From a virus: a stretch of DNA of 64,000 nucleotides. The stretch lies in IMG/VR virus record IMGVR_UViG_3300037222_000116, positions 23,903-87,902 of that record. One strand, written 5' to 3'. Position 1 is the stretch's first letter. Every line of letters begins with the position of its first letter. The position numbers and the translations under genes are program-made. Positions 4,642 through 59,374 of this stretch are shown here, piece by piece. The notes beneath the pieces are model-generated. The model worked only from the letters and a program-made list of their open reading frames with translations. It was not told the origin of the DNA and searched no databases.

Positions 4642-5410
4642 GTGGGTAGCAACCAACGACGAGCTGAAGATCAAGCTGATCAACGCTGCCTACCACATCT
4701 TCGATGACGCTTACGCCAATGACCAAGTCGCCAACTACCTCGACTTGCCTCTGGCTACCCTCATCTCGGAGATGAAACGTCTGGAAATGTGGTGTGATGA
4801 GGCCCCTACCGAAGCCAATACACCCACGACAGAAGCACCGCCAACAGCCAACGTCAACGCCGCTGCCGCGCCGCCAGAAGCCAACGCCAACGACACCAAT
4901 ACAGCTCACACGAAGCATGCACCCGCCCCAAATGATGCTATCCCGCGGGCGGTCCTGCCGGTCGTTCCCAAGAGCAATCATTGGACAACCACGCGCAAGT
5001 TTGCCGGGCCTGATGGTGTGCGGCGCTGCGATTTTTTCAACAGCAAGACCAAGGCGTGCTTCCATTACTGGCAACTGCAAGACGGCTTGTTTTCCAGCCT
5101 GCGATGTCCCGGCGACAATGTACCTAGCGGGCTGAAGAACCGTGCCGCGTGGTTGCAGCGTGAGGAATTTTCGCCAACGGGCGAAGAACCGCGGGTTGGC
5201 TGCCCCATGCACCACGGCTACCCCGAAGTCAAAATCGAGCAACCCACACCACCACCACCAACAGGACGATCCAACCTTTCGTTGCTCCCAGCACGACCGA
5301 CGCAGATCCCGCACGTCACGCGTCCCGGCGAGGACGAAGACGAGAACGACGACCACCGCGGACCCGACGAAGAGCCCGAGGACGACGGCAACGGGAAGCT
5401 CAACTCGTGA
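4634..5410 (+). CDS. hypothetical protein
   Basis: ORF in an overlapping-gene operon; Cys/His-containing C-terminal half, acidic tail. Confidence 0.6.
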   Translation: MAEWVATNDELKIKLINAAYHIFDDAYANDQVANYLDLPLATLISEMKRLEMWCDEAPTEANTPTTEAPPTANVNAAAAPPEANANDTNTAHTKHAPAPNDAIPRAVLPVVPKSNHWTTTRKFAGPDGVRRCDFFNSKTKACFHYWQLQDGLFSSLRCPGDNVPSGLKNRAAWLQREEFSPTGEEPRVGCPMHHGYPEVKIEQPTPPPPTGRSNLSLLPARPTQIPHVTRPGEDEDENDDHRGPDEEPEDDGNGKLNS

Positions 5411-5802
5411 GTGAAGAAGCCCTCCCGAAGTCGTTTCTGGGTCGTGTCTGGTGGACGATGAACTACATCGCGTGGGCCGTGATGTCGTTCTTCGCCAGCT
5501 TCACGTATCCAATCCGCGCGACCCTCGCCCTGCGTGCAGCCGGGCAGGAAGAGCAACGAGGCAACTGGATCGGTGCCTATGCGTTCTACGCACGAGCGAT
5601 GCACTTCGTCATCCTGCACGGCCTGAACCTCACGGCGAGCCACAAGACACTGCTCAAGCACAACCATCCAGCTCGCCGAATCGCTTTCATCGAGAGCGAA
5701 CTCGCCAAGTGGACAACGCGCGCGGACGCCCTGTGGGCAGCTTGTGAGCACTGCCGCGAGCACATCCTGCAAGTGGTCAAGACCGAACGCGAAGCCGCAT
5801 GA
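5407..5802 (+). CDS. hypothetical protein
   Basis: GTGA overlap with the upstream gene; CEHC motif. Confidence 0.6.
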   Translation: MSEEALPKSFLGRVWWTMNYIAWAVMSFFASFTYPIRATLALRAAGQEEQRGNWIGAYAFYARAMHFVILHGLNLTASHKTLLKHNHPARRIAFIESELAKWTTRADALWAACEHCREHILQVVKTEREAA

Positions 5803-19684: not shown

Positions 19685-19938
19685 TGGCGAGTTGCAAAGT
19701 GTGTCTCGAACACCTGCGCAAAGATGGCACCTGCAAATGGGCTTGTGATCCAAAGCTCGCCAATCCATTCAAGCGCACACGCCCTGTCGGCGTCAAAGAA
19801 GTGCCTGCTGACCAGCGCGGCGCAACGTTCTCGGTGGCAGAGCGACAGAACATGAGCAACGCGGTCGCCAAGGTCGACAAGACCTACGCGAGCTGGAGCA
19901 ATGAGATTCTTGCCCGGAAGAACCACGGCTCACGGTGA
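19685..19938 (+). CDS. small Cys-containing protein
   Basis: CKVC...CKWAC; overlaps the polymerase start. Confidence 0.5.
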
Positions 19939-22934
19939 GCACGGCAGTCGCTACGCCTGTTGTTCGCCTGACCGTCTTGCAGAAGCGTCTGCTCGATGAC
20001 GGGGCGAGATGCTGGGAGTGTCCTCTAGGGCGCGACGGCGCTCCATCCAAGCCTGTAGCTACACAATGGCACAGCAATGGTTCGCCAGCGTTGGCCTTGG
20101 TAGGGGAAGCGCCCGGCAGGAGAGAATGTCAAGTAGGTGCCCCATTCGTCGGCGCGAGCGGAAAAATGCTCGATACGGTCTTGAATCAGACCGAGATCCC
20201 ACGAAACCAAATCGCCATCCTGAACTGCGCTGCTTGCGGTCCAATCCCATCTGCGGCTGACGACATCAAGCGTCGTGCGGTCGAAGCGTGCAGGCCGCGC
20301 CTGCTCGCTGAGCTGAACAGGCTTCAGCCCAAAGTCATTCTTGGGCTCGGTGCGAGCGCCCTGAAGTCTCTCTCGCCACAGCAGAAGAGCGGCATTACCG
20401 TCCTGCGCGGTGCAATGCTGGACTTAGGTACTGACGTCGCGACCAAGTGGAAGCCGTCAGGCTTCTTTACAACTTTTCATCCGGCGCACATTCTTCGAGG
20501 CGGTGACGCCGAGGCCGAGGGACCGGGAGACGAGGGAAGCAGCGCCGTAGACCTCCTGTTCTACTTCTTCCTGTACGACGTCCTGAAGGCGTGGAACGTC
20601 GCGCAGGGCCTTGCGTCACCGTGGCGCGACGAATGTGACCTGTTCGTCCACAGTGAAGAAGGCAAGCTGTTTCGGGCGACGACCAATGCCACTGGCGCAG
20701 GCGTCGTTGGAGACGAAGCACACGCCGACGAGCTGATTGCTGCCGCACAGCGCCTCGCCGACGAAGCGCGTACCGAGGGCCGCTTTGCCTGCGACGTCGA
20801 GACAGACGGCAAGAATTCACTTCTCGCCAACCTGACTGCCATCGGCTTCGCGACGACGTTGGGCGGCTTGAGTGCGACGTGGGAGGCATGGCAGCGCGTA
20901 CCGCAGGCGCTCGGGATCATGCGCGAACTGCTCGCTGATCCACATATCCACATCGTTTTCCACAACCGGACCTACGACACCTGTGTCCTGCCACGACACG
21001 AGCTGCCGGTGCTCGGCATCGTCGACGACACGTTGCTCTTTCACCATGCAGCGTTCCCCGGCCTGCCACACAAGCTCGACCAAGTAGCCACGCAGTTTCT
21101 CATCACGCCGCCGTGGAAAAACGAATTCCGAAAGGGCACAAAAGACTTCGCGACGTTGGTGCTTTACAACTTCAGAGACGCGCACGCGACAGCATTGTTG
21201 GTTGGGCCGTTGATCAACATGATCAAGGCCCACAAGACCGAGAAGGTCTACGAAGTCGACCGCCAGTGTGCGGGCGTCGCGACCGAGATGCGCAAGATCG
21301 GCTTCTACGTCGATCGCGTCGAGCAGAAGCGACATAGCGACATTCAGCACGCCCGCCTCAAGTACATGCGGGAGTCGTTGACCAAGAGCTTCACGGACAT
21401 CGCTGAGCCATGGCGCGTCCAGCTCGCCAAGAACAACGCCAACAAAGTCAGGAAAAAAGACCCCGAGAGCTATCTCGACCGGGTTGCGATTCGCTATCGC
21501 GAGATCGCCGAGCGAGAGAAGAAGCCGACAGACATCGGCTTCTTCAAGCCCAAAGCCAAAGCAGACATCGTCGCTCTCTTTGAAGTGCTCAGGATTCCCT
21601 TCACGGCGTACACGAGTAAGGGCGCTCCGATCACAGACAAGAACGCAATGGAGCTGGCATCGATGCGCCACCCGTTGCTGCGGCAGTTGATTGACCTACG
21701 AGAAGCGCAGCAGTTGCTCGCGACCTACATCGACGGTCTGCCAGTGATGTTCGATGGACGCCTGCACCCTGATTGGAGCGTGAATAAAGTCACTGGACGA
21801 TGGTCTGCTGGGAAAACCCAGAACGTCCCCAAGCAGGTGAGTAGCTGGCCCCCGGAGACGAATGACGATGGGACTTGGAAGAGGAAGAAAAAAGGCGCGT
21901 ACATCACGCCGATCGAGAACCCGCGCTCGATTGTCTGCGCGCCGAGTGCGGCTCAAATTCTGTCACTCGGCTCGAAAGCGCATCCCGAAGTCCTGAGTCG
22001 TGCTCTCGAAGGCTACAGGCGTATGCTCTTCGGAGCTGACTCAGCCCAACAAGAGCTGCGCATCGTCGCGCTGATCAGTGGTGACAAGTTCCTGCTGGAC
22101 ATCTTCAATCGTGGCGAAGACCCGCACGCCGCCTTCGCGCGAATCGCTTTCCCGAAGGTCTTTCCTCAGATCGAAGCTGAGCTGGCGAAGCACGGCGTCA
22201 AGCCCAAGGACACAGCATTCACCAAGAAGAAGATTGCTGAAGCGCAGAACGACATCGAGCGGGCGCATTGGAATGCTGTGCTGCGGCTTCAGAAGAATTG
22301 GAGCAAGCTCCGCGACGTCTCGAAGAACGGCGAGTTCGGCTGCATCTACGGCGCAGGAGCCATGAAGATTTACGAGACATGGCGCATGCGTCTGCCCGAC
22401 GAGGAGACGCTGACTCTGTCTGATGCCGAGGCATTCTTCGAGACGTGCAACCGAGTGCTGGAGGGAGTCAACCGCTGGCGCAATCGGATGGAGACAGACG
22501 CGAGATTGCGAAGAGAGATCCGAGAGGTCTTGGGATACCGGGTTCGACTCTTCCCGCTCGGGCACTTCAATCCCAATATCTGTTACAACTTCCCGGTCCA
22601 AGCCTTCGGCGCATCGTTGATTGCGAGGGCTATCTTCCGGTTCGTGGCGCTGACGCAGCCGTCGTGGCTCAACCTCGGGATGCTCTACAAGAACGGCCTG
22701 CTCGATGCCAAGTGGGTGAGTGACAGAAGAGCCGAGGGCTATGGTGATTGGAAGGCTCCTGTGTGGCTGTTGATCAACGGCCACGATTCACTGGTCGGTG
22801 AATGCGACGAGGAGGACGCTGCCAAAGCCGCCAAGCTGCTAGAGCTGGCAATGACGATGCGCGTGAACATCGGCGACGCGTCGATTCTCTTTCCCGCCGA
22901 GCCTGACGTCGGCGTTCGTTGGTCGGAGGTTTGA
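19935..22934 (+). CDS. DNA polymerase family A fused to an N-terminal uracil-DNA glycosylase (family 4-like) domain
   Basis: CWEC...GEAPG...PFVG...HPA UDG motifs; exonuclease CDVETD, HNRTYD, YNFRDA; Pol motifs DSAQQELR, K..EFGCIYG, HDSLV. Confidence 0.93.
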   Translation: MSTAVATPVVRLTVLQKRLLDDGARCWECPLGRDGAPSKPVATQWHSNGSPALALVGEAPGRRECQVGAPFVGASGKMLDTVLNQTEIPRNQIAILNCAACGPIPSAADDIKRRAVEACRPRLLAELNRLQPKVILGLGASALKSLSPQQKSGITVLRGAMLDLGTDVATKWKPSGFFTTFHPAHILRGGDAEAEGPGDEGSSAVDLLFYFFLYDVLKAWNVAQGLASPWRDECDLFVHSEEGKLFRATTNATGAGVVGDEAHADELIAAAQRLADEARTEGRFACDVETDGKNSLLANLTAIGFATTLGGLSATWEAWQRVPQALGIMRELLADPHIHIVFHNRTYDTCVLPRHELPVLGIVDDTLLFHHAAFPGLPHKLDQVATQFLITPPWKNEFRKGTKDFATLVLYNFRDAHATALLVGPLINMIKAHKTEKVYEVDRQCAGVATEMRKIGFYVDRVEQKRHSDIQHARLKYMRESLTKSFTDIAEPWRVQLAKNNANKVRKKDPESYLDRVAIRYREIAEREKKPTDIGFFKPKAKADIVALFEVLRIPFTAYTSKGAPITDKNAMELASMRHPLLRQLIDLREAQQLLATYIDGLPVMFDGRLHPDWSVNKVTGRWSAGKTQNVPKQVSSWPPETNDDGTWKRKKKGAYITPIENPRSIVCAPSAAQILSLGSKAHPEVLSRALEGYRRMLFGADSAQQELRIVALISGDKFLLDIFNRGEDPHAAFARIAFPKVFPQIEAELAKHGVKPKDTAFTKKKIAEAQNDIERAHWNAVLRLQKNWSKLRDVSKNGEFGCIYGAGAMKIYETWRMRLPDEETLTLSDAEAFFETCNRVLEGVNRWRNRMETDARLRREIREVLGYRVRLFPLGHFNPNICYNFPVQAFGASLIARAIFRFVALTQPSWLNLGMLYKNGLLDAKWVSDRRAEGYGDWKAPVWLLINGHDSLVGECDEEDAAKAAKLLELAMTMRVNIGDASILFPAEPDVGVRWSEV

Positions 22935-27230: not shown

Positions 27231-27697
27231 TGGACCCTTATGGCACGCACCAGCAGGCGTTGATTGCTGCCGTCATGCGAACAACCGGGCCTGTTGTTGA
27301 ATTCGGCGCCGGGTACTACTCGACACCCGTGCTGCACGAGATATGTGGTGTGCAAGGGCGGCATCTGGTCACGTTGGAGCAGGATCAAGAGTGGATCGAT
27401 CGCTTTACGCGCTTTCGCGCGGACCACCACGAAGTCCTGCTCGTGGAGGATTGGGCGTTGTCTCCCGCGGCTGATTTGACTTGGTCGGTCGCGCTTGTCG
27501 ACCACGCCCCGGCATGGGCTCGGGTCGGGGTGCTGGATCGTCTGTGGCGTTCGGGGACGCAGTTCGTGGTCGTTCACGACACCGAAGGTGCTGTCTACAG
27601 CTACGAGCCCGTGCTGGCGCTGTACGCGCACCGGAAGGACTTTCGGGAGCTGACGCCGTGGACGACGGTCGTCAGCAACACCTGTCCGATCTGGTGA
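27230..27697 (+). CDS. class I SAM-methyltransferase-like protein
   Basis: VVEFGAGYYST, LVDH, VVHDTE. Confidence 0.7.
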   Translation: MDPYGTHQQALIAAVMRTTGPVVEFGAGYYSTPVLHEICGVQGRHLVTLEQDQEWIDRFTRFRADHHEVLLVEDWALSPAADLTWSVALVDHAPAWARVGVLDRLWRSGTQFVVVHDTEGAVYSYEPVLALYAHRKDFRELTPWTTVVSNTCPIW

Positions 27698-27700
27698 GCC

Positions 27701-28309
27701 TTAACGCCGCTTGCGCGATCGGCGCGGCCCGTCGAGGTCGGGTAGCTCTTGGCGTCTTGGAGCCTTCTTGCCCTTCGTCCACGCAGGAGGCTCCCAGAGG
27801 CCGGGGCACATGAAGGCACCTTTGCCGCGCGCTGGATACTCGCCAGTCCTGATGATGCGCTTCAGGGCCTCATAATCACGGACGCAGGCAATGTTCTCCC
27901 AGCCAGTGTACCGCGTCTTGCGTTGCTCTTCCCGAGCGCGCTCTCGCCAAGGTCTGCCATCGTGTTCGGGATTGTAGGGAGGATAGGCAACTCCTGTTCC
28001 GAGGTGCTTGGCAAGTGCGTAGATTTGCCTGTCGGTCTGCGCTGACGTGTGGTGTTCATCGGGTGTGAGGATGTAGACGCGGTTGTCGGCGTCTCGATAG
28101 GCGATCGGTGTCGAATAGTTGTAGCTGTAGGCGACAATGCCCATTCTGCCGGGATGTGCGTTGTCAGCTATCGTTTCTGTCCAGAAGCCGGGGTTGCCGT
28201 AATTGCGCCGCGGCTTGCATGACTTACCTTCGTCCCAGCACTTCAGGATCTTCTGGTAGTACGCGTGGGTGCCGGACCCCCATCCGAGCGCTGGTGCTCG
28301 ACGAGCCAT
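27701..28309 (-). CDS. phage protein with C-terminal PRRQELPDLDG + Arg tail
   Basis: YSYNYSTPIA...TSAQT core; tag at 27728-27760. Confidence 0.75.
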   Translation of the reverse strand: MARRAPALGWGSGTHAYYQKILKCWDEGKSCKPRRNYGNPGFWTETIADNAHPGRMGIVAYSYNYSTPIAYRDADNRVYILTPDEHHTSAQTDRQIYALAKHLGTGVAYPPYNPEHDGRPWRERAREEQRKTRYTGWENIACVRDYEALKRIIRTGEYPARGKGAFMCPGLWEPPAWTKGKKAPRRQELPDLDGPRRSRKRR

Positions 28310-28315
28310 TGGAAC

Positions 28316-28681
28316 TTACTTCTTGCCGAGGAACGCGTTGGCGCGGGCGACCGCCACCAGCACTTCCGGCTTGGGTTGAGAGCCACGCAGGACGGTCTTC
28401 TCGATGGTCTGGAGCGCGACCATGACGACGCACGTCGCCAACTCGGGCGCGAGCGAGGTCAGCGTGCTCTGCTCGTTCGCCCACGCGCCTGTGTCGCCGA
28501 GCAGCGCGTTGACGGCGTTGTCGACGAGGGGACCGACGCTGCCGATCGTGACGTTCGCTGCACAGCCGAGCGTCGCGAGCCCTGCCTGCGTCAGCGTCGA
28601 TTCCACCTGCGCCGTGTTGCACGTCGCACACGACGTCACGAAGAGGCAGAGGGCCGTCAGAAACCGATTCGGTGAGCGCAT
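28316..28681 (-). CDS. putative lipoprotein
   Basis: Signal-like MRSPNRFLTALCLFVTSC lipobox; helical body. Confidence 0.65.
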   Translation of the reverse strand: MRSPNRFLTALCLFVTSCATCNTAQVESTLTQAGLATLGCAANVTIGSVGPLVDNAVNALLGDTGAWANEQSTLTSLAPELATCVVMVALQTIEKTVLRGSQPKPEVLVAVARANAFLGKK

Positions 28682-28718
28682 GTTGAGCAGCTTATGCTAC
28701 TCGTGTAGGCTCTTGCAA

Positions 28719-29444
28719 ATGGGCAAGCCACGCCGACGCCGACGCCGGATGTTCCGAGGAGTAGGACGGCTCGGTGCGCCTGCCGTGCGCGTGCCGCCTG
28801 TTCACGCTCGCCAGCGCGGCGTCTGTCAGGTCATCCGAGATCCTGACACGCTGCTGGTTCGCCACGCTCTTCAGGACGAAGAGCTGGAGTCGATGTACCT
28901 CGTCGACAAGAACATCCTGATCTTCGGCGATGAGAACTGCGTTGGCGAACCTGATCGGACCACGCACCTCGGGCCGAACTTCTGGATCGTCCACAACCAT
29001 CCGCTCGGGAGCCCACCGTTCCTGTCTGTCGCTGACGGCTGCTTCGCCAACTACCATTCTGCGCGTCGCATGGACGTCGCGGGCTTCATGCCGATCGACG
29101 AGCATCACGCCGTTCGGGTCGTCATGGAGTTCCGACAGCGCAACGCTCGGAAGCGATGGCCTTGCGACGATGACGCCGACATGAACTCGATGATGCCGAA
29201 CGACGGCAACATCGAGGTCAAGCAGTACATCGCTGATGAATACCCGCTCTACTTCGATACGGGGCGGCGACGGATTGAGCTTGCCAAGATGGACCGCGAG
29301 TTCCAGCGCGAGGAAGCTGAGCGCATCCGTGAAGACGAAGTGGAGAGGGAGCGAAGGAAGACCGCTCGATTCAATGACCTCGAAATCGACGGCGCTCGTC
29401 GTCCTCGAAAGCGCGTGAAGGCGGCACGTCGAGCTTCCCGATGA
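28719..29444 (+). CDS. JAB/MPN (RadC-like) metallopeptidase domain protein with Arg-rich ends
   Basis: E...VHNHPLGSPPFLSVAD matches HxH-x(7-8)-SxxD; N-terminal PRRRRRR...RLG, C-terminal IDGARRPRKR. Confidence 0.7.
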   Translation: MGKPRRRRRRMFRGVGRLGAPAVRVPPVHARQRGVCQVIRDPDTLLVRHALQDEELESMYLVDKNILIFGDENCVGEPDRTTHLGPNFWIVHNHPLGSPPFLSVADGCFANYHSARRMDVAGFMPIDEHHAVRVVMEFRQRNARKRWPCDDDADMNSMMPNDGNIEVKQYIADEYPLYFDTGRRRIELAKMDREFQREEAERIREDEVERERRKTARFNDLEIDGARRPRKRVKAARRASR

Positions 29445-29716
29445 CCAAGAAGGAATGGGATGGTCTGAAGGAGGGAGATACAATCTTCTTTTGCGCTACG
29501 GAAGAGGGAGATTTTTTCGGATATGGCGATCGTGCGCGTGTTCGCGGATCACGGTGGACGACAGATGGTACTCGGGTACACGTAACTGCTGAAAAGCAAG
29601 GTGTTGTCGTTCTTCCTGTGCAATCAGCAAAAGCATGGATGCTCAAGCCATGTAAGAAACGCCCTCGCCGCCAACAGCTTCCTGACCTCGGACGCACCAG
29701 AGCACGCCGTCGATGA
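29441..29716 (+). CDS. small SH3/KOW-like protein with PRRQQLPDLG tag
   Basis: MTKKEWDGLKEGDTI; ends KRPRRQQLPDLGRTRARRR. Confidence 0.75.
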   Translation: MTKKEWDGLKEGDTIFFCATEEGDFFGYGDRARVRGSRWTTDGTRVHVTAEKQGVVVLPVQSAKAWMLKPCKKRPRRQQLPDLGRTRARRR

Positions 29717-30030
29717 GCCCTCCGTCGTGGAAGCATATTGCACCGCAGCATCGAGAAGCCGTCCTGCGTGGGCTTGAGAAGGCCGCTCTCGCTGCCGAGA
29801 AGCACGCAGCGACGTTCGCCAGTGACGTCAACGTCAGGACGTTTCACGTCGAGCTGGCGAAAGCGTTTCGGGCGGCGGTAGGGAGACTCAACGAGGTCGA
29901 CGCTGTTGCTGTTGGTGACGTCCCGCCCGGCTACGTTCCCGACGACAAGATCACTTCCGGCGACGTTTTGGATGTTGTCGCTGGGATGGCACGCGCATTC
30001 GGCATGGAAATCCCGCCTCGGCGTCGTTGA
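29713..30030 (+). CDS. hypothetical protein
   Basis: ATGA overlap; ends FGMEIPPRRR. Confidence 0.6.
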   Translation: MSPPSWKHIAPQHREAVLRGLEKAALAAEKHAATFASDVNVRTFHVELAKAFRAAVGRLNEVDAVAVGDVPPGYVPDDKITSGDVLDVVAGMARAFGMEIPPRRR

Positions 30031-30358
30031 GGTCGGGGAGCCTTTGCTGCCTCGGTCTGCTCTTCGCGCAAGCCTTCTCGGTGCGGTGCCAGTACTGGAT
30101 GTCTTGCGGATAGATTAGGGACTCGCCGCCCGTGTAATGCTTCACCACGCCGCGATACGAGTAACCTCTACGAAGAAGTTTGCGCGCTTCTGGCGTTGGG
30201 TCAGCGTCGTAAACAGCATTATGGAAGTCTTCCGCCGTTGATGCCTTGAGCGGTTTCTCTGCGAGCTTTGCACATTTCATGGCGTACCCGGCGTACTGCG
30301 GCCCGCAGTAGCAGATGCGGTCGCCGACTTTGACCTTCGCCCATTCCTTCTCGGTCAT
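29951..30358 (-). CDS. SH3/KOW-like protein with PRQQRLPDL tag
   Basis: MTEKEWAKVKVGDRI, similar to the 29441 N-terminus; tag at 30026-30055. Confidence 0.7.
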   Translation of the reverse strand: MTEKEWAKVKVGDRICYCGPQYAGYAMKCAKLAEKPLKASTAEDFHNAVYDADPTPEARKLLRRGYSYRGVVKHYTGGESLIYPQDIQYWHRTEKACAKSRPRQQRLPDLNDAEAGFPCRMRVPSQRQHPKRRRK

Positions 30359-30615
30359 CGGCGTCTGCGCGCTTTGCCGAGGTCAGGGAGTTGCTGACGA
30401 CGAGGTCGCTTTCGTGGATTGCAGTCGACTGTCTTTACTTTGTACCAATCTCGGAAATCGTCGAAAGTGGTTCCTCGTTTCCAAGCGTCAGGGTGACTTG
30501 AGGCATTGGCGACAAGTGTAGCTGTGTGAGACGCGACCTTTTTCCATACGGTCGTTTCGCCTTCAACGAAGACAAAGCATGTTCCGACCGGGACCGCACT
30601 GAATAGATAAGCCAT
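30355..30615 (-). CDS. small protein with PRRQQLPDLG tag
   Basis: Ends RKRPRRQQLPDLGKARRRR. Confidence 0.75.
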   Translation of the reverse strand: MAYLFSAVPVGTCFVFVEGETTVWKKVASHTATLVANASSHPDAWKRGTTFDDFRDWYKVKTVDCNPRKRPRRQQLPDLGKARRRR

Positions 30616-31358
30616 CAGCGTCCTCGCCCCAATGTCATCGCCAAGGCAATCCCCAACCCAACTGCGACGGCTGCTGCGCTCCCGAGGTACACGCCGACGG
30701 CGGCAGTCTCACGCAGGCCATTGCCGAGATGGTTGGCTCGCGCCAGCGTGAATGCTCGTCGTGCTTGCAGGCCGCTGAAACGTCCGAGGTCGGGGAGGCG
30801 TTGTTTGCGGGGACCGCGATGCTTGCGTAGCAACTCATCACCCTCTGAGCGTGTGAAGCTCTGAACTTGACTGTCCTCTCGGGCGTCTTCATCAGTAATG
30901 TCGAAGGGGTTGTAGTAGACAGGGTGTAAAACGTATGCGGCCCATTCGGTATCTACATAGGACAACTGCATCGGACGTCCATTGATGACGACGTCGTAGC
31001 TTTGCCGTTTTCTAGCTACTCCGAGGTCGGGGAGTCGTTGTCGACGCGGGCGCTTCTTGTGCTCGTCTATCCATGCTTGCTCTATCTCGGCAGCTTTGAG
31101 ATTGGCGAGCTTGGCAATCACAGCTTTCGAGAAAAAGTGATCGGTGATTCCTATCTCGCGTCGATAGCGTGCAGCGGCTTCTTTGTACCATTGCCGCCAG
31201 AGCTTCTCAGCCAATGCTGGATCGTACTTCTTGGCTTTGAGGAATTTCTCGGCATTCTTCTCGATGGCCTGCTTGCGCGCGTAGAGTTCGTACTCGTTCT
31301 CGGCATAGAGATCGAGTTCGTCAGCGGAGCGTTCCTCATCACGCGACAAAGCGGGCAT
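30615..31358 (-). CDS. multi-module protein with two LPDLG tags and a C-terminal TM helix
   Basis: ELDLYAENEYELY...YD..LAEKLW domain; tags at 31020-31049 and 30783-30812; hydrophobic C-terminus. Confidence 0.75.
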   Translation of the reverse strand: MPALSRDEERSADELDLYAENEYELYARKQAIEKNAEKFLKAKKYDPALAEKLWRQWYKEAAARYRREIGITDHFFSKAVIAKLANLKAAEIEQAWIDEHKKRPRRQRLPDLGVARKRQSYDVVINGRPMQLSYVDTEWAAYVLHPVYYNPFDITDEDAREDSQVQSFTRSEGDELLRKHRGPRKQRLPDLGRFSGLQARRAFTLARANHLGNGLRETAAVGVYLGSAAAVAVGLGIALAMTLGRGR

Positions 31359-31364
31359 TGCTGA

Positions 31365-32243
31365 TTACTTCGAGCCGAAGGCCGCTTCTTCGTAGATGGC
31401 GGTCGCGAGCGGCTCGACGTTCAGGAGCACTTCGCTCGGTGACAGCGGCGGAAGCCCGTGGGCGTCTCGGTAGTCGCTCACACGCGCCATCGTCGCCACG
31501 TCGAGCTTGCCAGTGATCTTCACGGGGCGATACCCGCTCGACCACGCGTTGATCGCGCCTTGAAGGCGCATGATCTTTCTCATCATGCCCTCGGGCTGCA
31601 CACGGACACCCGACGCCGCCGCCCCGAGGTTGATGTGCCGGGAGCCATTCAGCGACTTGTTGACAACGAATCGAACAGGTGCGATTGCGCCTGCCCCTGC
31701 TTGCCCTCCGCAACAACTCAAATGCCCTGCGGCGTCGGAGCAGAGGTTTGTGCCGGGGGGACAAGTTGGCGTTCCTCCTGCTGCTATTGCTGCTGCCTGC
31801 GACATACCCGATTGAGATTTTCTAAAATTCCCTACCGTAACTGGTTGTGTGTAGTGATGCGGCGCACGCGGACGCCGCCGCCGATAAACTGGAGATGGTG
31901 TCCGGTAGACCGGCGCAGCGTAGACCGGCGCAGCGTAGGCCCGACGCGCGTAGCCAAGGTCCCCGAGCGATCCCTGCATGCTGATGTTGCTCGACGATGT
32001 GATCTTCATGTTCGGATTCGACGGATGCTTGCCGGGCAAGATCCCCGACTGCTGCATGCTGTCGTCCATGATCTTCTTGAGCATGTCGAGCTGGTCGCGC
32101 ATGGCTTTCGGCAACTGCGGCTGCTTGCCGACGAGCATGGGCCTGACGATGCTCTCGGGCGTCGGTGCGCCGCCAAGTGGGCCGACGTAGGGGAACGGAA
32201 GGTCGTAGTACGAATCGCGCTCCGGGTAGTCGTCGTAGCCCAT
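31365..32243 (-). CDS. putative virion protein with a C-terminal peptidoglycan-binding-like repeat
   Basis: SLGDLGYARR, YAAPV x2, LQGAIN...ITGKLDVAT motif. Confidence 0.65.
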   Translation of the reverse strand: MGYDDYPERDSYYDLPFPYVGPLGGAPTPESIVRPMLVGKQPQLPKAMRDQLDMLKKIMDDSMQQSGILPGKHPSNPNMKITSSSNISMQGSLGDLGYARRAYAAPVYAAPVYRTPSPVYRRRRPRAPHHYTQPVTVGNFRKSQSGMSQAAAIAAGGTPTCPPGTNLCSDAAGHLSCCGGQAGAGAIAPVRFVVNKSLNGSRHINLGAAASGVRVQPEGMMRKIMRLQGAINAWSSGYRPVKITGKLDVATMARVSDYRDAHGLPPLSPSEVLLNVEPLATAIYEEAAFGSK

Positions 32244-37749: not shown

Positions 37750-38010
37750 ATGGCGAAGAAGCAACCGTCATTGACTCTGCCTGAGTACGTCACCGTTCGC
37801 GGTGCGTCCGAGTGGAACACAACCGTCGACAAAGCCATTCACTGCATGCTCGTGCAGGCGTTGGCGGTGTCGAACGGCAACGTCCGTAGCGCCGCTGACG
37901 CGCTCGGTGTCGAGCGGACGACGGCATACAGGTATGTCCGCAAGTTCTCGTTGGCGAAGTGGGCTGCTGACCTCGTCGACAAGGCGAGCGCCTCCAAGAA
38001 AGCCGCGTAG
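37750..38010 (+). CDS. Fis-type HTH protein
   Basis: ALAVSNGNVRSAADALGVERTTAYRYVRKF. Confidence 0.8.
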   Translation: MAKKQPSLTLPEYVTVRGASEWNTTVDKAIHCMLVQALAVSNGNVRSAADALGVERTTAYRYVRKFSLAKWAADLVDKASASKKAA

Positions 38011-38069
38011 TTCTCCAGCAATGCCCTTCCGCCGTGACGCCCGTCACGGATCAAAGAAACCGATTCCTG

Positions 38070-38098
38070 TTGACACCTGTTGCAGAACTGCTACAGCT
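38070..38098 (+). promoter_or_regulatory. promoter TTGACA with operator TGTTGCA-GAAC-TGCTACA (38078-38095)
   Basis: -35 TTGACA; the operator overlaps the spacer and -10. Confidence 0.7.
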
Positions 38099-38173
38099 AT
38101 CCCTGCAACATCAACCGGACGCCTCGGCGAGTGCCGACCCGCAGAGGCGTTCACGTCTAACAGGGAGAACACC

Positions 38174-39463
38174 ATGTCGAACGTCACCAGTACCGCCATC
38201 AACGAAGCAGGAGCCGATCGCGTCGCCGAGCAGATGAAGGCTGCGGTCAACGCGGGCCTCGGCTTCAAGGGCAATCTCTACTTCGCCGCAGGGACGCGGC
38301 TGATCGACGCTGGCGAAAAAGCGTTTCAGGTCAAGCGGCAGGCGTGGGAGAACGGCGTTCCCGCCCGTGACCTCCTCGACGGGCAGATCGCGACGGCCTA
38401 CGCCGCCGAGGAGCGCAAGGACGTCGAGACGCCCGTCGAGTGGCTCAAGATGAACCCGCAGACCGGCCTCATTCACAGGTCCACCGGAGGCAACAAGTAC
38501 GGCGCGGGACTGACCGTCAGCAAGAAGGCGCTGTCGCAGATCCTCGACCGCGCAGGCGCTCCGGGGCACGCTGGCGCGTACCTGACCAAGTGCCCGGTCA
38601 ACATGCGCGCCGAGCACACGAACATCTGGCTCGGGCAGGAGAGCAACAGCGGCGGCGATCCGGTCGTCATCCGCACTCGGCTCGATGGCGCGATGCGTGG
38701 CATCTACGCCTGCGTCTCGCAGAAGTACGCCAAGATGGACTTCCCGCAGGCGATCGAGGCGTTCCTGCGGGCCGTGCCGGGCAGCGCCAAAGGCGAGTTC
38801 ACCTACGACGGCAACAAGTGGCGCTTCCGCGCGACCTTCCACAGCGACCTCATGCCCTCGGAAGTAGTCGTTGGCGACATCTACCAGCTCTCCGCGTGGA
38901 TCGAGGGCGTCGATGACGCGAGCGGTAGCGTTGTCATCGGCCTCGACGCAGCGCGCGTCGCCTGCGTCAACCTGACGACGATTTATGCAAAGACCATCGA
39001 GGGATCTGTCCGTCACATGGGCAAGGCGATGCTCGACAAGATTGCCGCTGTCAGCGCGTCCGTGATGACCAAGGCCGCGCCCTTCGTCGATGCGTGGACG
39101 GCGGCGACCAAGGATGTCATCTGCGAGCAGGCGTCCGAGAAGGGCGTCCAGTGGGTGTTCGTGCAGCTCGTCAAGGACGGCTACGTGAAGAGTGTCGGCG
39201 CGGACCCGATGGTCCTCGTCGAGCGCTTCATGCGCGCGTGGCAGAAGGAGCCCGGCTACTGCAAGAGTGACATCATCAACGCCATCACGCGGTCTGCCCA
39301 CGAAGACGCGTGGCGCTCGCCGTGGGCGACGACGGAGCTGGAGGCGCAGGCGGGCGAGTTGCTCTTCCAGAAAGTCATCGACCTCGCGCCCTACGACGCG
39401 GGCTTCGTCATGGCTCCCGTCGACGGGACGGTCAATCGCTTCGCGACGCTGGAGGTGGGCTGA
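38174..39463 (+). CDS. DUF932-like phage protein
   Basis: IRTR...ACVSQKY, D.SGSV...RVACVN, RHMG, INAITR..H pattern. Confidence 0.75.
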   Translation: MSNVTSTAINEAGADRVAEQMKAAVNAGLGFKGNLYFAAGTRLIDAGEKAFQVKRQAWENGVPARDLLDGQIATAYAAEERKDVETPVEWLKMNPQTGLIHRSTGGNKYGAGLTVSKKALSQILDRAGAPGHAGAYLTKCPVNMRAEHTNIWLGQESNSGGDPVVIRTRLDGAMRGIYACVSQKYAKMDFPQAIEAFLRAVPGSAKGEFTYDGNKWRFRATFHSDLMPSEVVVGDIYQLSAWIEGVDDASGSVVIGLDAARVACVNLTTIYAKTIEGSVRHMGKAMLDKIAAVSASVMTKAAPFVDAWTAATKDVICEQASEKGVQWVFVQLVKDGYVKSVGADPMVLVERFMRAWQKEPGYCKSDIINAITRSAHEDAWRSPWATTELEAQAGELLFQKVIDLAPYDAGFVMAPVDGTVNRFATLEVG

Positions 39464-40858: not shown

Positions 40859-40888
40859 TTGACGGCGTGTTGCAGAATTGCTACAGGT
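40859..40888 (+). promoter_or_regulatory. promoter TTGACG with operator TGTTGCA-GAAT-TGCTACA (40868-40885)
   Basis: AT-rich UP element, -35, operator over the -10. Confidence 0.7.
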
Positions 40889-40936
40889 CAGGAAAGCATT
40901 TCTGCAACACCACCGACAACGGGAGGAACAGACAAA

Positions 40937-41917
40937 ATGGCAAACGGCATCCTCAAGACCCTCGACGCAGGCCGCGAAGAAATCTTCCTCGTCGATCCCT
41001 CCAAGTTGACCGTCATTACCGACGCGAAGCACCCGCTCTACGACCCGCGCGTCGAGCGCCCGTTCGAGGAGGCGATGGTCAAGAACATCATGGTCAACGG
41101 CGTCATCGAGCCGCTGATCGTCAAAAAGGATGGCGAGGCGTCCCTCGTCGTCATCGACGGTCGCCAGCGTCGTGTCAATGCCATCGAGGCCAATCGTCGT
41201 TTCGCCGAGCAGGGCATTGCCATTCTCAAAGTCCCGTGCCGTCTGCGCAAGGGCGACGACAAGGCGCTCTTCGGCGTGATGATCGGCAGCAACGAGATCC
41301 GCTCGAACGACGAGCTGTACGAGAAGATCACCAAGGCCAAGCGCAGCCTCGACATGGGCTACACCAACGAGGAGATCGCCGTTCAGTTCGGCGTGCATCT
41401 TCGCACCGTCGAGAACTGGATGGCCTATCTCGACTGCACGGCGTCCGTCCAGAAAGCAGTTCGTGAGGGCACGCTCACGATGACGGCAGCGCTCAAGTTC
41501 TCGAAGCTCTCCGAGGACGACCAGCGCACGGCGCTCGCCGAAGCCAAGGCCAACGGCCCGATGAAGGGCGCTGCGGCGTCGGCGGCTGCCACGCAGGCGG
41601 TCGCCGAGGTCAAGGCGTCCAAGTCCAAGGCGGGGCGTCCCAAGGGCAGCGGTGCCAAGACCAAGGAGCCCAAGGACGAGCAGGAGAAGACGCCGGGCGC
41701 GCTGCCGTCCCGGTCGCCGAAGTTCCTCAAGCGCTGGCGCATCGCACTGACCGACCAGCAGACCTCCCACGACACGTCCAAAGCCGACGCGCGCCTCGCC
41801 GGGCAGGTGCGCGACGTCATCGCGTTCATCTACAGCGGCGACCTCAAGGAGCTGTCCGACCTCCCCGAGTGCATCAAGACGGCGGCGAAGGCGGCTCGCA
41901 AAGCGAAGAAGGCGTAG
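40937..41917 (+). CDS. ParB-like protein
   Basis: GVIEPLIV...VIDGRQR...NEIR, HTH (EEIAVQFG). Confidence 0.85.
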   Translation: MANGILKTLDAGREEIFLVDPSKLTVITDAKHPLYDPRVERPFEEAMVKNIMVNGVIEPLIVKKDGEASLVVIDGRQRRVNAIEANRRFAEQGIAILKVPCRLRKGDDKALFGVMIGSNEIRSNDELYEKITKAKRSLDMGYTNEEIAVQFGVHLRTVENWMAYLDCTASVQKAVREGTLTMTAALKFSKLSEDDQRTALAEAKANGPMKGAAASAAATQAVAEVKASKSKAGRPKGSGAKTKEPKDEQEKTPGALPSRSPKFLKRWRIALTDQQTSHDTSKADARLAGQVRDVIAFIYSGDLKELSDLPECIKTAAKAARKAKKA

Positions 41918-48774: not shown

Positions 48775-49091
48775 AGAAGGTCGTCATCCACGCGCCGCAC
48801 GAGCCGACGACGAACCTGCACGTCGAGCACGTCTGGAAAGAGATGCTGCGTCGAGGAGCACCGAGGTTGCGTGCTGTGCAGCTCGACGACGGGAGCTGGC
48901 AAGCGCTCGAAGGCAGTCATCGCCTCTGGGTGGTGAGCGAACAGGAGCATCCGATCGTCATTGTTCCTGTACTTCCTGCCCAGCGCATCACGACTGACGT
49001 ATTGGGTATGCGACGCTCGGTCAGAGACATCCTTGAAGCGTTGGACGCCTTGTCCCGCCCTGCCTACAAGCTCAAGGCCGAGATCAAATGA
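48771..49091 (+). CDS. ParB/Srx-like small protein
   Basis: PRLRAV...ALEGSHRL. Confidence 0.55.
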   Translation: MKKVVIHAPHEPTTNLHVEHVWKEMLRRGAPRLRAVQLDDGSWQALEGSHRLWVVSEQEHPIVIVPVLPAQRITTDVLGMRRSVRDILEALDALSRPAYKLKAEIK

Positions 49092-50014
49092 CACTGCTCG
49101 AACAGGTGATTGCTGACAGCCGCAGGCTCGCACCAAAGACCAAGGCGGCGTACCTCGCGTCCATTAGACTCTTCCTCGCCTACGTCGGTACTGGAGTAGG
49201 CAAATATGTCGTGGTGGATGCGCGCACACTCAAGCCTGCGGACCTCGACAGGTGGTGCAAGGCGCAGGCGGCGACGTGTACGGCAGTGACCATCAACAGC
49301 CGACTGGCAGCCGTCAAGACAGCGTCCAAACGCCTGCACGAACTGCATGGCCTGCCTGACTTCGCAGCATCCGTCGAAGGCTTCAAGGGCACGCACGGCG
49401 CAGCGATGGCCCAGCAGTCGGCCAAGACGCCTGCGCGGGCTCTGTCGACCGACGAGGTCAACGCCATGTACGGCGTCTGCGCAGAAGGAACATGGATGGG
49501 CATGCGGGACCGGGCGATCCTGTGTCTCGGCTTCAGGCTCGGCCTGCGTCGCATGGAGATCGCACAGGTCGAGTGGCGACACTTCGAGGATGGCATCAAG
49601 AAGCTCCGCGTCGCAGGCAAAGGCGACAAGGACGACATCCTCGACGTCGACGACATGACGCAGGGAGCTTTGCGTGCGTTCCGCGCCAAGACACCGCCAG
49701 CGCTCAAGACCACCGGCTTTGTCTTCGTCCGAGCCCGCAATCAGCTCATCGACATCCAGAGGCCGCTGACGCCCGATGGCATCAACAAGATCGTCAGTGT
49801 GATTGCAGCCAAGGCGAAGGTGCCTTGTCACCCGCACGAGATGCGCCACACGTTCATCTCACAGGCGTTGGCGGCGGGGGTGCCTCCATGGATGGTCCAG
49901 AAGGCAGCGCGGCACGCGTCGCCGCTGACGACCTACGGCTACGCGCACATGCCTGCCAACGATGGTGCGATCGGGAATTCGATTCCGACGGACAGCAACG
50001 GGGAGGAAGAGTAA
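49088..50014 (+). CDS. tyrosine recombinase (XerC/D-like)
   Basis: RDRAIL...GLRRMEI, GKGDK, HEMRHT, HASPLTTYGY. Confidence 0.92.
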   Translation: MTLLEQVIADSRRLAPKTKAAYLASIRLFLAYVGTGVGKYVVVDARTLKPADLDRWCKAQAATCTAVTINSRLAAVKTASKRLHELHGLPDFAASVEGFKGTHGAAMAQQSAKTPARALSTDEVNAMYGVCAEGTWMGMRDRAILCLGFRLGLRRMEIAQVEWRHFEDGIKKLRVAGKGDKDDILDVDDMTQGALRAFRAKTPPALKTTGFVFVRARNQLIDIQRPLTPDGINKIVSVIAAKAKVPCHPHEMRHTFISQALAAGVPPWMVQKAARHASPLTTYGYAHMPANDGAIGNSIPTDSNGEEE

Positions 50015-58348: not shown

Positions 58349-59374
58349 CTACAACTGGTAGCCGAGCGCGAGCAGCTCGCGGATGACGTCAACCGCCTTC
58401 GCCGACGAAGGGCGTGTGATACGACTGAACCGCAGACCGCGGCGCGCTGCTCGCCCCATGAGCAGCTTTCGCGCCCTACGACGCGAGGTGTTCGGGCTCG
58501 ACGCCGACGACGGAACGCCGACAGCGTCCTTTTGCACCATCGCCCACTTCTGGCCGTCCCAATACTGGCCGTAGCCACCGGGGCGAATCTCGAACGGCTC
58601 CTTGCAGAGTCCGAGGTAGTCGTACTTCGCTCCCGCAGGGAGCCCACCATCGAGAGGCGACCAGTAGAGCGGTAGGGTGAAGTTGCTCACCTGCACGCCG
58701 TCGATCGTGTAGCTATCGTCCTCGACAGCGTCGCAGACCTCTGCCGCCCAGATTTTGCCGGTGGCGGGATCTTGCACACAGGAATTCAATTCGGGATCAC
58801 CTTCGGCTTCGAGGATCTCGTGCGACGTACTCGACGACGGATCGACGCCGTCCTGAAGATCAAGCGCCGGGAAGACCTTGATGACCAGCTTGCCGGTCGC
58901 CGTCCGATCGTGGTAGGCGAGCGCGCCTTCCTGATCGACTTTGTCGGTGTAGAGCACGACGTTCTCGTCGGGTTGCGCGGGCAACTCTGCCGTCGCTGCG
59001 CGAACGTTCGCGCCCATGGCGTAGCCGTTCGGCGCAGGCTGCGCGAAGTGCTCGTTCACCTGCTTGGACATCGCGGCGGCGATCTCCACGCAGCGCGTCG
59101 GCGTGACCGAGGGACTCTCCGTCACGAGCACGTACTTGTTGCCGATCGCCACCTGATCGTAGGTCGCGTTGACAGACACCGGGGGCTGACCAACGGGCTG
59201 TGTCACAGGGACTCCTTTGGGGCGAGGGGCAGGGTGATGCCGTGAAGCCGCCGTCGCGGCGAGTGCATCCTGCTTGTCGACGGGCAGCGTGCCGTGAGAC
59301 GACAAGTGGCGCTTGCCGGTGTGCAGGACACGCATCTTGTTGGCGTGGTGTCGCGACGGACGCTTCGGGGGCAT
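58349..59374 (-). CDS. zincin-type metallopeptidase with basic N- and C-terminal extensions
   Basis: ALAYH...SHEILE...DP...EVCDAVE...VSNF; tail RRRARKLLMGRAARR. Confidence 0.7.
   Translation of the reverse strand: MPPKRPSRHHANKMRVLHTGKRHLSSHGTLPVDKQDALAATAASRHHPAPRPKGVPVTQPVGQPPVSVNATYDQVAIGNKYVLVTESPSVTPTRCVEIAAAMSKQVNEHFAQPAPNGYAMGANVRAATAELPAQPDENVVLYTDKVDQEGALAYHDRTATGKLVIKVFPALDLQDGVDPSSSTSHEILEAEGDPELNSCVQDPATGKIWAAEVCDAVEDDSYTIDGVQVSNFTLPLYWSPLDGGLPAGAKYDYLGLCKEPFEIRPGGYGQYWDGQKWAMVQKDAVGVPSSASSPNTSRRRARKLLMGRAARRGLRFSRITRPSSAKAVDVIRELLALGYQL

Follow-up and report, generated by a model that had tools for sequence, protein, structure and literature searches.

A probable JAB-superfamily protein of RadC-like type with glycine-bounded end modules in the tagged-gene cluster of a peat virus

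The JAMM motif, which marks zinc hydrolases of the JAB (JAMM/MPN+) superfamily, is defined as EXnHS/THX7SXXD in the available part of its description (PMC300881). For RadC and two Tox-JAB clades, the available sections of three accounts state that the residues lining the tunnel for a ubiquitin-like tail are not kept, and argue from context that these domains act on nucleic acids, as predictions rather than assay results (PMC3239186, PMC3482391, PMC5512222). Here we describe a JAB-like protein, P0001, the 241-aa product (translated from the DNA) of the open reading frame (ORF) at 28719–29444 (plus strand) of a 64,000-nt stretch of viral DNA. This stretch, hereafter the window, comprises bases 23903–87902 of the 87,902-base virus record IMGVR_UViG_3300037222_000116, which has a 122-base terminal repeat and a GC content of about 60%. 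From its sequence and predicted model, P0001 is probably a member of the JAB superfamily, and its HNHP signature resembles the RadC-like/Tox-JAB branch most closely, not the ubiquitin-tail peptidases. The initial annotation had called a JAB/MPN metallopeptidase here; at the superfamily level this call is probably right, because P0001 combines a conserved Glu with HxH and S..D, a fitting order of secondary-structure elements, weak recurrent MPN matches and a RadC profile match, whereas every curated family threshold is missed and the branch that it resembles is RadC-like. The reading that we favor, with moderate confidence, is that of a divergent RadC-branch JAB zinc hydrolase that is also one of the "addressed" proteins of the virus, because a C-terminal module of P0001 recurs at the end of a 553-aa ORF and, in two copies, in the 623-aa protein P0008.

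A RadC-like signature in a very small family

The motif reported in the initial annotation, HNHPLGSPPFLSVAD, spans P0001 residues 92–106 (28992–29036, plus strand), and Glu residues lie upstream of it at E54, E55, and E57. Zinc would be bound by H92, H94, and D106, with S103 as the candidate Ser of the motif, and Glu57 (28887–28889, plus strand), the only one of the three Glu residues that is invariant in the family, is the candidate general base, aligned by hhalign with the conserved Glu of RadC. Both hallmarks of JAB/JAMM/MPN+ domains, a conserved Glu upstream of the His pair and H-x-H followed by S-x-x-D, are present in all four family members, although the HxH...S..D motif is one residue longer than in RadC and JAMM proteins (x8, not the canonical x7). 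Glu57, H92, N93, H94, P95, S98, P100, S103, and D106 are all invariant; because these catalytic-type residues are retained in four proteins that are only 31–37% identical overall, the motif is taken to be real. Considered by itself, this type of motif exceeds chance only weakly: the loose pattern H.H.{8}S..D has four occurrences in the six-frame translation of the genome vs. a mean of 0.32 (maximum 2) in 100 block shuffles. The canonical x7 spacing has 0 occurrences in the same translation, and HNHP has two, the second being at 5659 in an unrelated membrane-like ORF. That 131-aa hydrophobic ORF (window 5407–5802, plus strand) is devoid of the rest of the motif, and its HNHP is taken as chance.

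P0001 founds a tiny family of four protein clusters in the public collections searched. A phmmer search of 1,835,955,588 representatives (E <= 0.001) recovered four proteins, namely the window's own (called as 183 aa from M59) and three others, at E 1.5e-21, 3.7e-17, and 2.7e-11: P0003 (220 aa), P0004 (213 aa), and P0005 (441 aa). A word-indexed search with P0001 as a single sequence returned only the window's own protein; a family-profile search of a 5.8-billion-cluster collection returned the known members with no addition; scans of IMG/VR, JGI metagenomes, and GTDB genomes (with the profile, P0004, or P0005 as query) confirmed no relative; and tblastn of P0001 against GenBank phages gave no match. 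Statements on conservation in the family hence refer to a four-row alignment, which also makes for weak profiles and a weak structure model. In P0005, the JAB-like domain is followed by LEIDGA, a linker, a canonical RadC domain (Pfam E 1.3e-33), and a C-terminal hydrophobic helix. This protein, which comes from another source and is found on 19 contigs (the longest of 15,587 bases), has two JAB-type domains in one membrane-anchored chain.

The ORF at 28719–29444 is a real gene, since the three other protein clusters share 31–37% identity together with the invariant residues, and since ATGA overlaps connect it to the two plus-strand genes that follow. Database gene calls are shorter, starting at M11 (231 aa) or M59 (183 aa); the start at 28719 is preferred because homologs align from residue 7 on and all four members keep the N-terminal Arg-rich...LG-AP leader. 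The three phmmer matches begin at P0001 residues 40, 36, and 7. A longer open frame from 28404 runs into a lipoprotein-like gene on the minus strand, which it overlaps. The antisense ORF 28692–29483 (minus strand) was rejected as the gene, as the conserved relatives lie on the plus strand; the pattern of GC by codon position fails to tell the plus from the antisense strand at this locus. Contigs that cover 27600–31400 in three studies (two peat metagenomes, possibly the source, and one permafrost metagenome) have zero differing letters, and 15 of 17 contig pieces match this interval at at least 99%.

The similarity to RadC (PF04002) was examined using ten RadC domains, which came from a set of 36 phage records with a match to P0005 in its RadC part (each of the 30 rows listed is confined to P0005 residues 263–401). 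HNHP is present in all ten domains and in all four family members. P0001 shares with RadC the arrangement HNHP-x-G...S-x-x-D with an upstream Glu at the start of a strand, as well as an occurrence in phages and mobile elements, and P0005 ties the two together in that its JAB-like domain is fused to a bona fide RadC domain. The hhalign comparison of the four-row family alignment with the ten RadC domains gave a score of 37.3 (E 5e-5, probability 67%) over 64 columns (P0001 residues 43–108), compared with a mean of 12.1 (standard deviation 2.2, maximum 18.5) for 200 column shuffles and 18.9 for the reversed alignment. In this register, Glu falls on Glu, and HNHP...S..D is aligned with a one-residue insertion; the part before the motif, aligned alone, takes the same register (score 15.3, E 0.055). 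When a plain hidden Markov model (HMM) of the ten RadC domains was run against 1,262 sequences, the three homologs and the target ORF ranked right behind the true RadC domain (E 0.07 to 1.4). Among the language-model neighbors of residues 34–180 that belong to named clusters, six of the eight rows listed are Prok-JAB, RadC, Toxin-JAB1, or DUF4329 (scores 0.84–0.89), which serve as leads only.

P0001 differs from RadC in several respects. It falls below the Pfam and NCBIfam models altogether, with no threshold reached; it has one extra residue between HNHP-x-G and S..D; and it carries Gly-bounded basic modules at its ends, while its post-motif part has no alignment to RadC. The invariant GDENCV, C108, and WPC of the family were not seen in the ten RadC domains. 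The GDENCV loop (residues 70–75; 28926–28943, plus strand), with invariant G70, D71, C74, and V75, is peculiar to the family and takes the place of part of the RadC helix region; C74, C108, and C149 are the three invariant Cys of the family. If the JAB assignment holds, the family would represent a new and very small branch of the superfamily, set apart by its motif spacing, by a core of reduced length, by three additional invariant Cys residues, and by conserved Gly-bounded end modules.

The Tox-JAB-1 and Tox-JAB-2 (DUF4329) clades are likewise divergent JAB clades outside ubiquitin-like systems, and both families are among the language-model neighbors of P0001. The first domain of P0005 has a sub-threshold match to Toxin-JAB1 (PF15659; residues 73–101, E 0.017, 16.1 bits vs. 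a cut-off of 21); P0001 itself has no match to this family, so that neither protein reaches the cut-off, and RHS and secretion modules are absent. The available part of one account describes a lipoprotein as the immunity partner of Tox-JAB-1 (PMC3482391). A lipoprotein-like gene adjoins the P0001 gene as well; since it matches no family, we regard the resemblance as coincidental. Classical JAMM/MPN+ enzymes (AfJAMM, Rpn11, AMSH/Sst2, BRCC36) share the E...HxH...S..D logic with P0001, and their named folds recur among its weak structural matches (Z only 3.5–4.3), whereas P0001 has Asn rather than Ser/Thr between the two His, a spacing of x8 rather than x7, and no recognized ubiquitin-like partner.

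Structure prediction, which the initial annotation had proposed as a check on the JAB fold, gives a low-confidence model with weak MPN/JAB matches. AlphaFold2 with one sequence was unusable (predicted local distance difference test, pLDDT, 40); with the four-row alignment, pLDDT was 60 and the predicted template-modeling score was 0.49. The predicted JAB-like core (residues 34–176; 28818–29246, plus strand) is a block with pLDDT mostly 56–79, to which the weak MPN/JAB matches correspond over model residues of about 42–181. Its elements follow the order strand-helix-strand-strand-strand-helix-strand-strand-strand: a first strand, a helix (44–52), strands at 58–61, 66–69, and 89–96, a helix (104–112), and three strands, after which comes a long helix (183–221). 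The His pair ends strand 89–96, D106 opens helix 104–112, and E57 lies just before the strand that follows the first helix, which is the JAB arrangement. In a fold search of 48,161 cluster representatives, seven of the 50 rows listed cover the core, three of them being MPN/JAB chains (6h3c, Z 4.3; 5ld9, Z 4.1; 5cw3, Z 4.0). Re-ranking of the best 889 chains from Foldseek gave, among the 50 rows listed, 25 MPN/JAB rows (Z 3.5–4.3; many entries of about five proteins), 15 rows of the acetyl-CoA carboxylase central domain, and 10 helix-only or other rows. The MPN/JAB chains are Sst2, Rpn8–Rpn11, Prp8 Jab1, AF2198, and BRISC, where we take the spliceosome and proteasome chains to be Prp8 Jab1 and Rpn11/Rpn8, respectively.

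End modules, tags and possible activities

Both ends of P0001 are Arg-rich, as the initial annotation had noted, with six consecutive Arg near the N-terminus, which reads MGKPRRRRRRMF. The basic leader (residues 1–19; 28719–28775, plus strand) ends RLG before AP, with R7 and G19 invariant, and an N-terminal Arg-rich stretch ending LG before (V)AP is found in all four members. Near the other end, the Glu/Arg-rich helix at residues 183–221 (29265–29381, plus strand) leads into the C-motif RFNDLEIDGA (residues 217–226; 29367–29396, plus strand), in which R217, L221, E222, D224, and G225 are invariant, and then into a basic tail (residues 227–241; 29397–29441, plus strand), of which 9 of 15 residues are Arg or Lys. 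In all four members, such a helix has RFxxLE(I/F)D(D)G close to its end, followed by a basic tail in three of them and by the linker and RadC domain in P0005. The conserved leader and C-motif of the family are newly described here.

The C-motif recurs elsewhere in this genome. A loose regular expression for it has seven six-frame matches, of which four were accepted: the P0001 gene, two in P0008, and the end of the 553-aa ORF. The other three, of which one falls within the polymerase and two belong to frames that are short or unlikely, were taken as chance. P0008 (genome 13834–15705, minus strand; outside the window) has an internal copy, GRFEYLEIDGALGR, and a C-terminal copy, GRFSHIEGARRRR, and the internal copy is followed by ...RLGAAP, which resembles the N-terminal leader of the family. 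From its Ala-, Glu-, and Arg-rich composition, P0008 looks helical, and it has the appearance of two head-to-tail units; no family or PDB match was obtained for it. By BLASTP, P0008 matches the last 62 residues of P0001 (E 0.010), with the long helix of P0001 aligned to the helical segment before the internal P0008 motif; the motif of P0005 also matches P0008 (E 0.009, 11 of 16 residues identical), and hhalign aligns the C-motif with the internal copy in P0008 (score 32.1, E 0.0014 over 17 columns). These scores are modest, as for a short motif, and the recurrence is consistent. P0008 as a degenerate JAB domain was rejected (hhalign against RadC, E 0.38). The protein of the 553-aa ORF ends exactly with ...NRFATLEVG (39437–39463, plus strand), that is, with the C-motif and no tail. 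The ORF itself (37802–39463, plus strand) likely has its true start at an internal Met near residue 125, and has no family or PDB match. A scan of IMG/VR for RFxxLEIDGA gave 14 loci, the peptide being found again by regular expression in four and none having a JAB-like neighbor or HNHP; they are read as chance rather than as relatives.

A second module, the LPDLG tag, is distinct from the C-motif: P0001, P0008, and the 553-aa ORF share the one C-terminal module, and ten other sites carry the other. There are ten LPDL tags in the 87,902-bp genome and seven in the window, six of the latter between 27745 and 31034, so that the placement of P0001 inside a tagged-gene cluster, as initially described, stands. 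Synonymous codon differences among the tags indicate that the peptide is conserved, not the DNA. About 12 residues ahead of the Gly are conserved, with hardly any conservation beyond it, and LPDLGKP is the end of one tagged protein. A scan of IMG/VR for RRQQLPDLG gave five single matches, none of which is terminal in a small Arg-tailed protein, and these were attributed to chance. P0001 offers an entry point to the tag system of a peat virus in which no structural gene was assigned to a known family.

In the favored reading, H92, H94, and D106 would hold a zinc ion, Glu57 would activate the zinc-bound water, and S103 would support the transition state, as in other JAB enzymes, while the C-module would bring P0001 to the same place as the other proteins that carry it, possibly the assembling or DNA-filled particle. 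As to what such an enzyme might do there, granted the JAB fold, cleavage after Gly of the virus's own Gly-bounded extensions (its own included) is a tentative proposal, and so is activity of the RadC kind on nucleotides or nucleic acid; that P0001 strips ubiquitin-like conjugates in the host appears distinctly improbable, and the rest of the expectation falls to some other activity.

The family carries conserved Gly-bounded basic extensions, and the C-motif stands at domain boundaries in two other proteins, which favors the idea, raised in the initial annotation, that P0001 cuts tags. As a maturation peptidase, it would cut after the Gly of LPDLG, LEIDG-A, and LG-AP, including its own, thereby freeing Arg-rich end peptides and separating polyprotein-like modules. 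The P0001 gene is located where the tags are densest, and its translation is coupled to that of a tagged gene; a Gly boundary beside a basic stretch is found at both ends of all family members; the C-motif occupies internal domain boundaries in P0005 and P0008, in the latter followed by the leader-like ...RLG-AAP; the ...LEVG end of the 553-aa ORF has the appearance of an already "cut" product, and LPDLGKP ends one tagged protein; and Peptidase_S78 and CLP_protease were not found in the genome (E <= 1). The recurring unit, which opens with "basic...LG-A", closes with "LE(I)DG-A...basic", and is in places joined to the next head to tail, nevertheless fits a docking module common to these proteins, hinged flexibly at its Gly residues, just as well as it fits cleavage after Gly. 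LPDLG in particular, being conserved upstream of the Gly, suggests a docking peptide more than a site of cleavage, and two other proteins, a 188-aa transglutaminase-core-like protein and the 341-aa product of ORF 58349–59374, are candidates for any processing. Moreover, the signature is of RadC type, and since that branch is argued, in the accounts cited above, to be without a tail-binding groove, it does not follow automatically that a JAB domain in P0001 cuts after Gly; the contextual RadC predictions weaken this step rather than refute it. Cleavage of the tags by P0001 is possible, although we would not expect it, and the same low expectation applies to the maturation peptidase as a whole.

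A precedent of sorts comes from other viruses. Some capsid maturation proteases have the same C-terminal targeting segment as the scaffold, and in adenoviruses and poxviruses core proteins undergo Gly-directed processing; the proteases concerned belong to other folds and use a catalytic serine or cysteine. P0001 and the long helical P0008 similarly share a C-terminal module, and the basic proteins of this virus have Gly-bounded extensions, with the difference that processing by P0001 and a scaffold role for P0008 are conjectures from sequence. Taken to its full extent, the comparison would make P0001 a JAB-fold particle maturation protease of an unclassified virus lineage, recruited by its RFxxLEIDG module like a scaffold-like protein, cutting after Gly at LG-AP, LEIDG-A, and LPDLG, trimming itself, splitting polyprotein-like products, and freeing Arg-rich peptides that stay with the DNA. 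We regard this complete scenario as improbable; if true, it would be a counterpart in a bacterial virus to the Gly-directed processing just mentioned for adenoviruses and poxviruses. To our knowledge, the JAB fold is not known in the role of a particle maturation protease, and no report linking a prohead protease with JAMM was found in the literature searched.

P0001 may alternatively be a RadC-like enzyme acting on nucleic acid or nucleotides as an early or co-injected effector, with basic ends that bind DNA and with the tags of its neighbors irrelevant to its chemistry. HNHP in all ten RadC domains fetched, the fusion of P0005 to a canonical RadC domain, and the published arguments from context for RadC and Tox-JAB domains as nucleases or in nucleic-acid processing (available parts of PMC3239186, PMC3482391, PMC5512222) are in keeping with such a role. 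Both termini of P0001 are Arg-rich, and basic C-terminal tails in 19 of 120 crude ORFs (basic N-termini in 16 of 120) point to a general habit of the virus. However, those accounts predict a nuclease role for RadC and do not give it as an assay result, no helix-hairpin-helix (HhH), helicase, or primase partner is fused or adjacent to P0001, the invariant C74, C108, and C149 and the GDENCV loop have no RadC counterpart, and the conserved Gly-bounded modules are left unexplained. We therefore consider this alternative, too, a possible but rather unlikely one. P0001 could give a first biochemical handle on RadC-type JAB domains, whose role is treated as a prediction in the parts of the literature available.

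The JAB assignment weighed

Several results weigh against the reading of P0001 as an addressed, RadC-branch JAB hydrolase. Searches of Pfam (E <= 10), PHROGs (E <= 1), NCBIfam (E <= 0.1), and PADLOC (E <= 1) returned 0 families for P0001, the NCBIfam RadC models did not match it, PDB sequence searches with the single sequence or the profile returned nothing relevant, and the Pfam RadC and Toxin-JAB1 models had no match in a six-frame search of the genome (E <= 10). The spacing is H-x-H-x8-S-x2-D in all four members, compared with x7 in the ten RadC domains; the distance from Glu to His is 35 residues vs. 50 in a RadC example; and P0001 is without a predicted helix between strands 66–69 and 89–96. 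The RadC profile signal comes mostly from the 15-residue motif, after which nothing aligns, and the plain HMM of the ten RadC domains gives the target ORF only E 1.4, yet places it first of 1,259 genome ORFs. The structure model rests on four sequences, with a pLDDT of only 60, and Foldseek against PDB and BFVD (E <= 0.001) gave no match. The four core-covering rows of the fold search that are not MPN/JAB chains are the central domain of acetyl-CoA carboxylase, with Z up to 4.8, and all Z-scores are below 5. As to the particle, the localization of P0001 there is something that we infer, and no capsid, portal, terminase, or scaffold family was recognized in the genome.

A further alternative is that P0001 is not a JAB protein. 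Its clustered His, Ser, and Asp residues would then form a site, for metal or for structure, that is particular to this family within a different fold, or P0001 would be a non-catalytic component of the virion. The curated searches are all negative, the fold matches are tied with an unrelated carboxylase domain, the motif spacing and Glu–His distance are off, and the Atlas's own model resembles Phage_Mu_F, VG15, and Phage_min_cap2 clusters and HflX N-domains (template-modeling scores 0.59–0.69 by query). On the other hand, the complete set of Glu, HxH, and S..D is invariant across sequences that have diverged to 31–37% identity, the register including the Glu is common to RadC, the placement of these residues on the secondary structure fits, and JAB-clan families dominate the named language-model neighbors. 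We accordingly regard a non-JAB identity as unlikely, and retain the assignment to a divergent RadC-type JAB domain.

JAB enzymes are known to reverse ubiquitin-like conjugation, as in Bil systems. That general fact, which extends to the CBASS system (available part of PMC10449767), is all that speaks for the second suggestion of the initial annotation, a packaged deconjugase that strips host ubiquitin-like modifiers (of the Bil type or CBASS type II) from phage or host proteins, and we consider this highly improbable, given that PADLOC defense models (E <= 1) return 0 families for all four family members, that no ubiquitin-like, E1, or E2 context was found, that the signature is of RadC type and not that of a ubiquitin-like tail peptidase, and that no phage JAB protein with such a role was found among the reports listed in the literature search.

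Gene neighborhood and genome context

The stop codon of the P0001 gene (TGA, 29442–29444) overlaps the start codon (ATG, 29441–29443) of the next gene in an ATGA, which bears out the overlap with a tagged gene that had been reported. This 91-aa ORF (29441–29716, plus strand) ends with a PRRQQLPDLG tag (...KKRPRRQQLPDLGRTRARRR) and an Arg tail, and overlaps in turn, again by ATGA, a 105-aa gene (29713–30030, plus strand) that ends PPRRR and is the third of the run. The three genes diverge from a pair on the minus strand. The first of the pair, the 121-aa lipoprotein-like gene (28316–28681), encodes a putative signal peptide (a positively charged start and a hydrophobic stretch) and a lipobox-like VTSC, read from the sequence; it has no family match, and its third-position GC (0.88) is the highest among 16 ORFs measured. 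Directly downstream of it lies a 202-aa gene (27701–28309) that ends PRRQELPDLDG plus an Arg tail. No Pfam family was above cut-off in the nine neighbors scanned.

Annotation of about 50 ORFs with PHROGs, Pfam, or NCBIfam recognized replication, recombination, and methylase genes only, with no terminase, portal, capsid, scaffold, or prohead-protease family among them. In a six-frame search of the genome (E <= 1), Terminase_6N and Phage_capsid were not found, and neither were the two protease families mentioned above, other terminase, portal, and capsid families not being searched. A long minus-strand operon (genome 0.8–19.4 kb) matches nothing. The 341-aa ORF that is the second of the other protease candidates gave no family with Pfam or NCBIfam. 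The 188-aa candidate (genome 17508–18074, minus strand) lies directly upstream of three LPDLG-tagged small genes and has a transglutaminase-core match of 21.6 bits vs. a cut-off of 23, which makes it, from its sequence, an alternative candidate for any processing.

The recognized genes of the genome are a D5-type primase-helicase, a SNF2 helicase, topoisomerase-like, ParB-like, integrase, and Sak4-like genes, methyltransferases, and thymidylate synthase. In a 999-aa protein (window 19935–22934, plus strand), a family-A DNA polymerase is fused to a 3'-5' exonuclease and to a domain of the uracil-DNA-glycosylase superfamily. The window also contains a tyrosine-integrase-like gene (49088–50014, plus strand) and a ParB-like gene (40859–41917, plus strand), which suggest a temperate or plasmid-like lifestyle.

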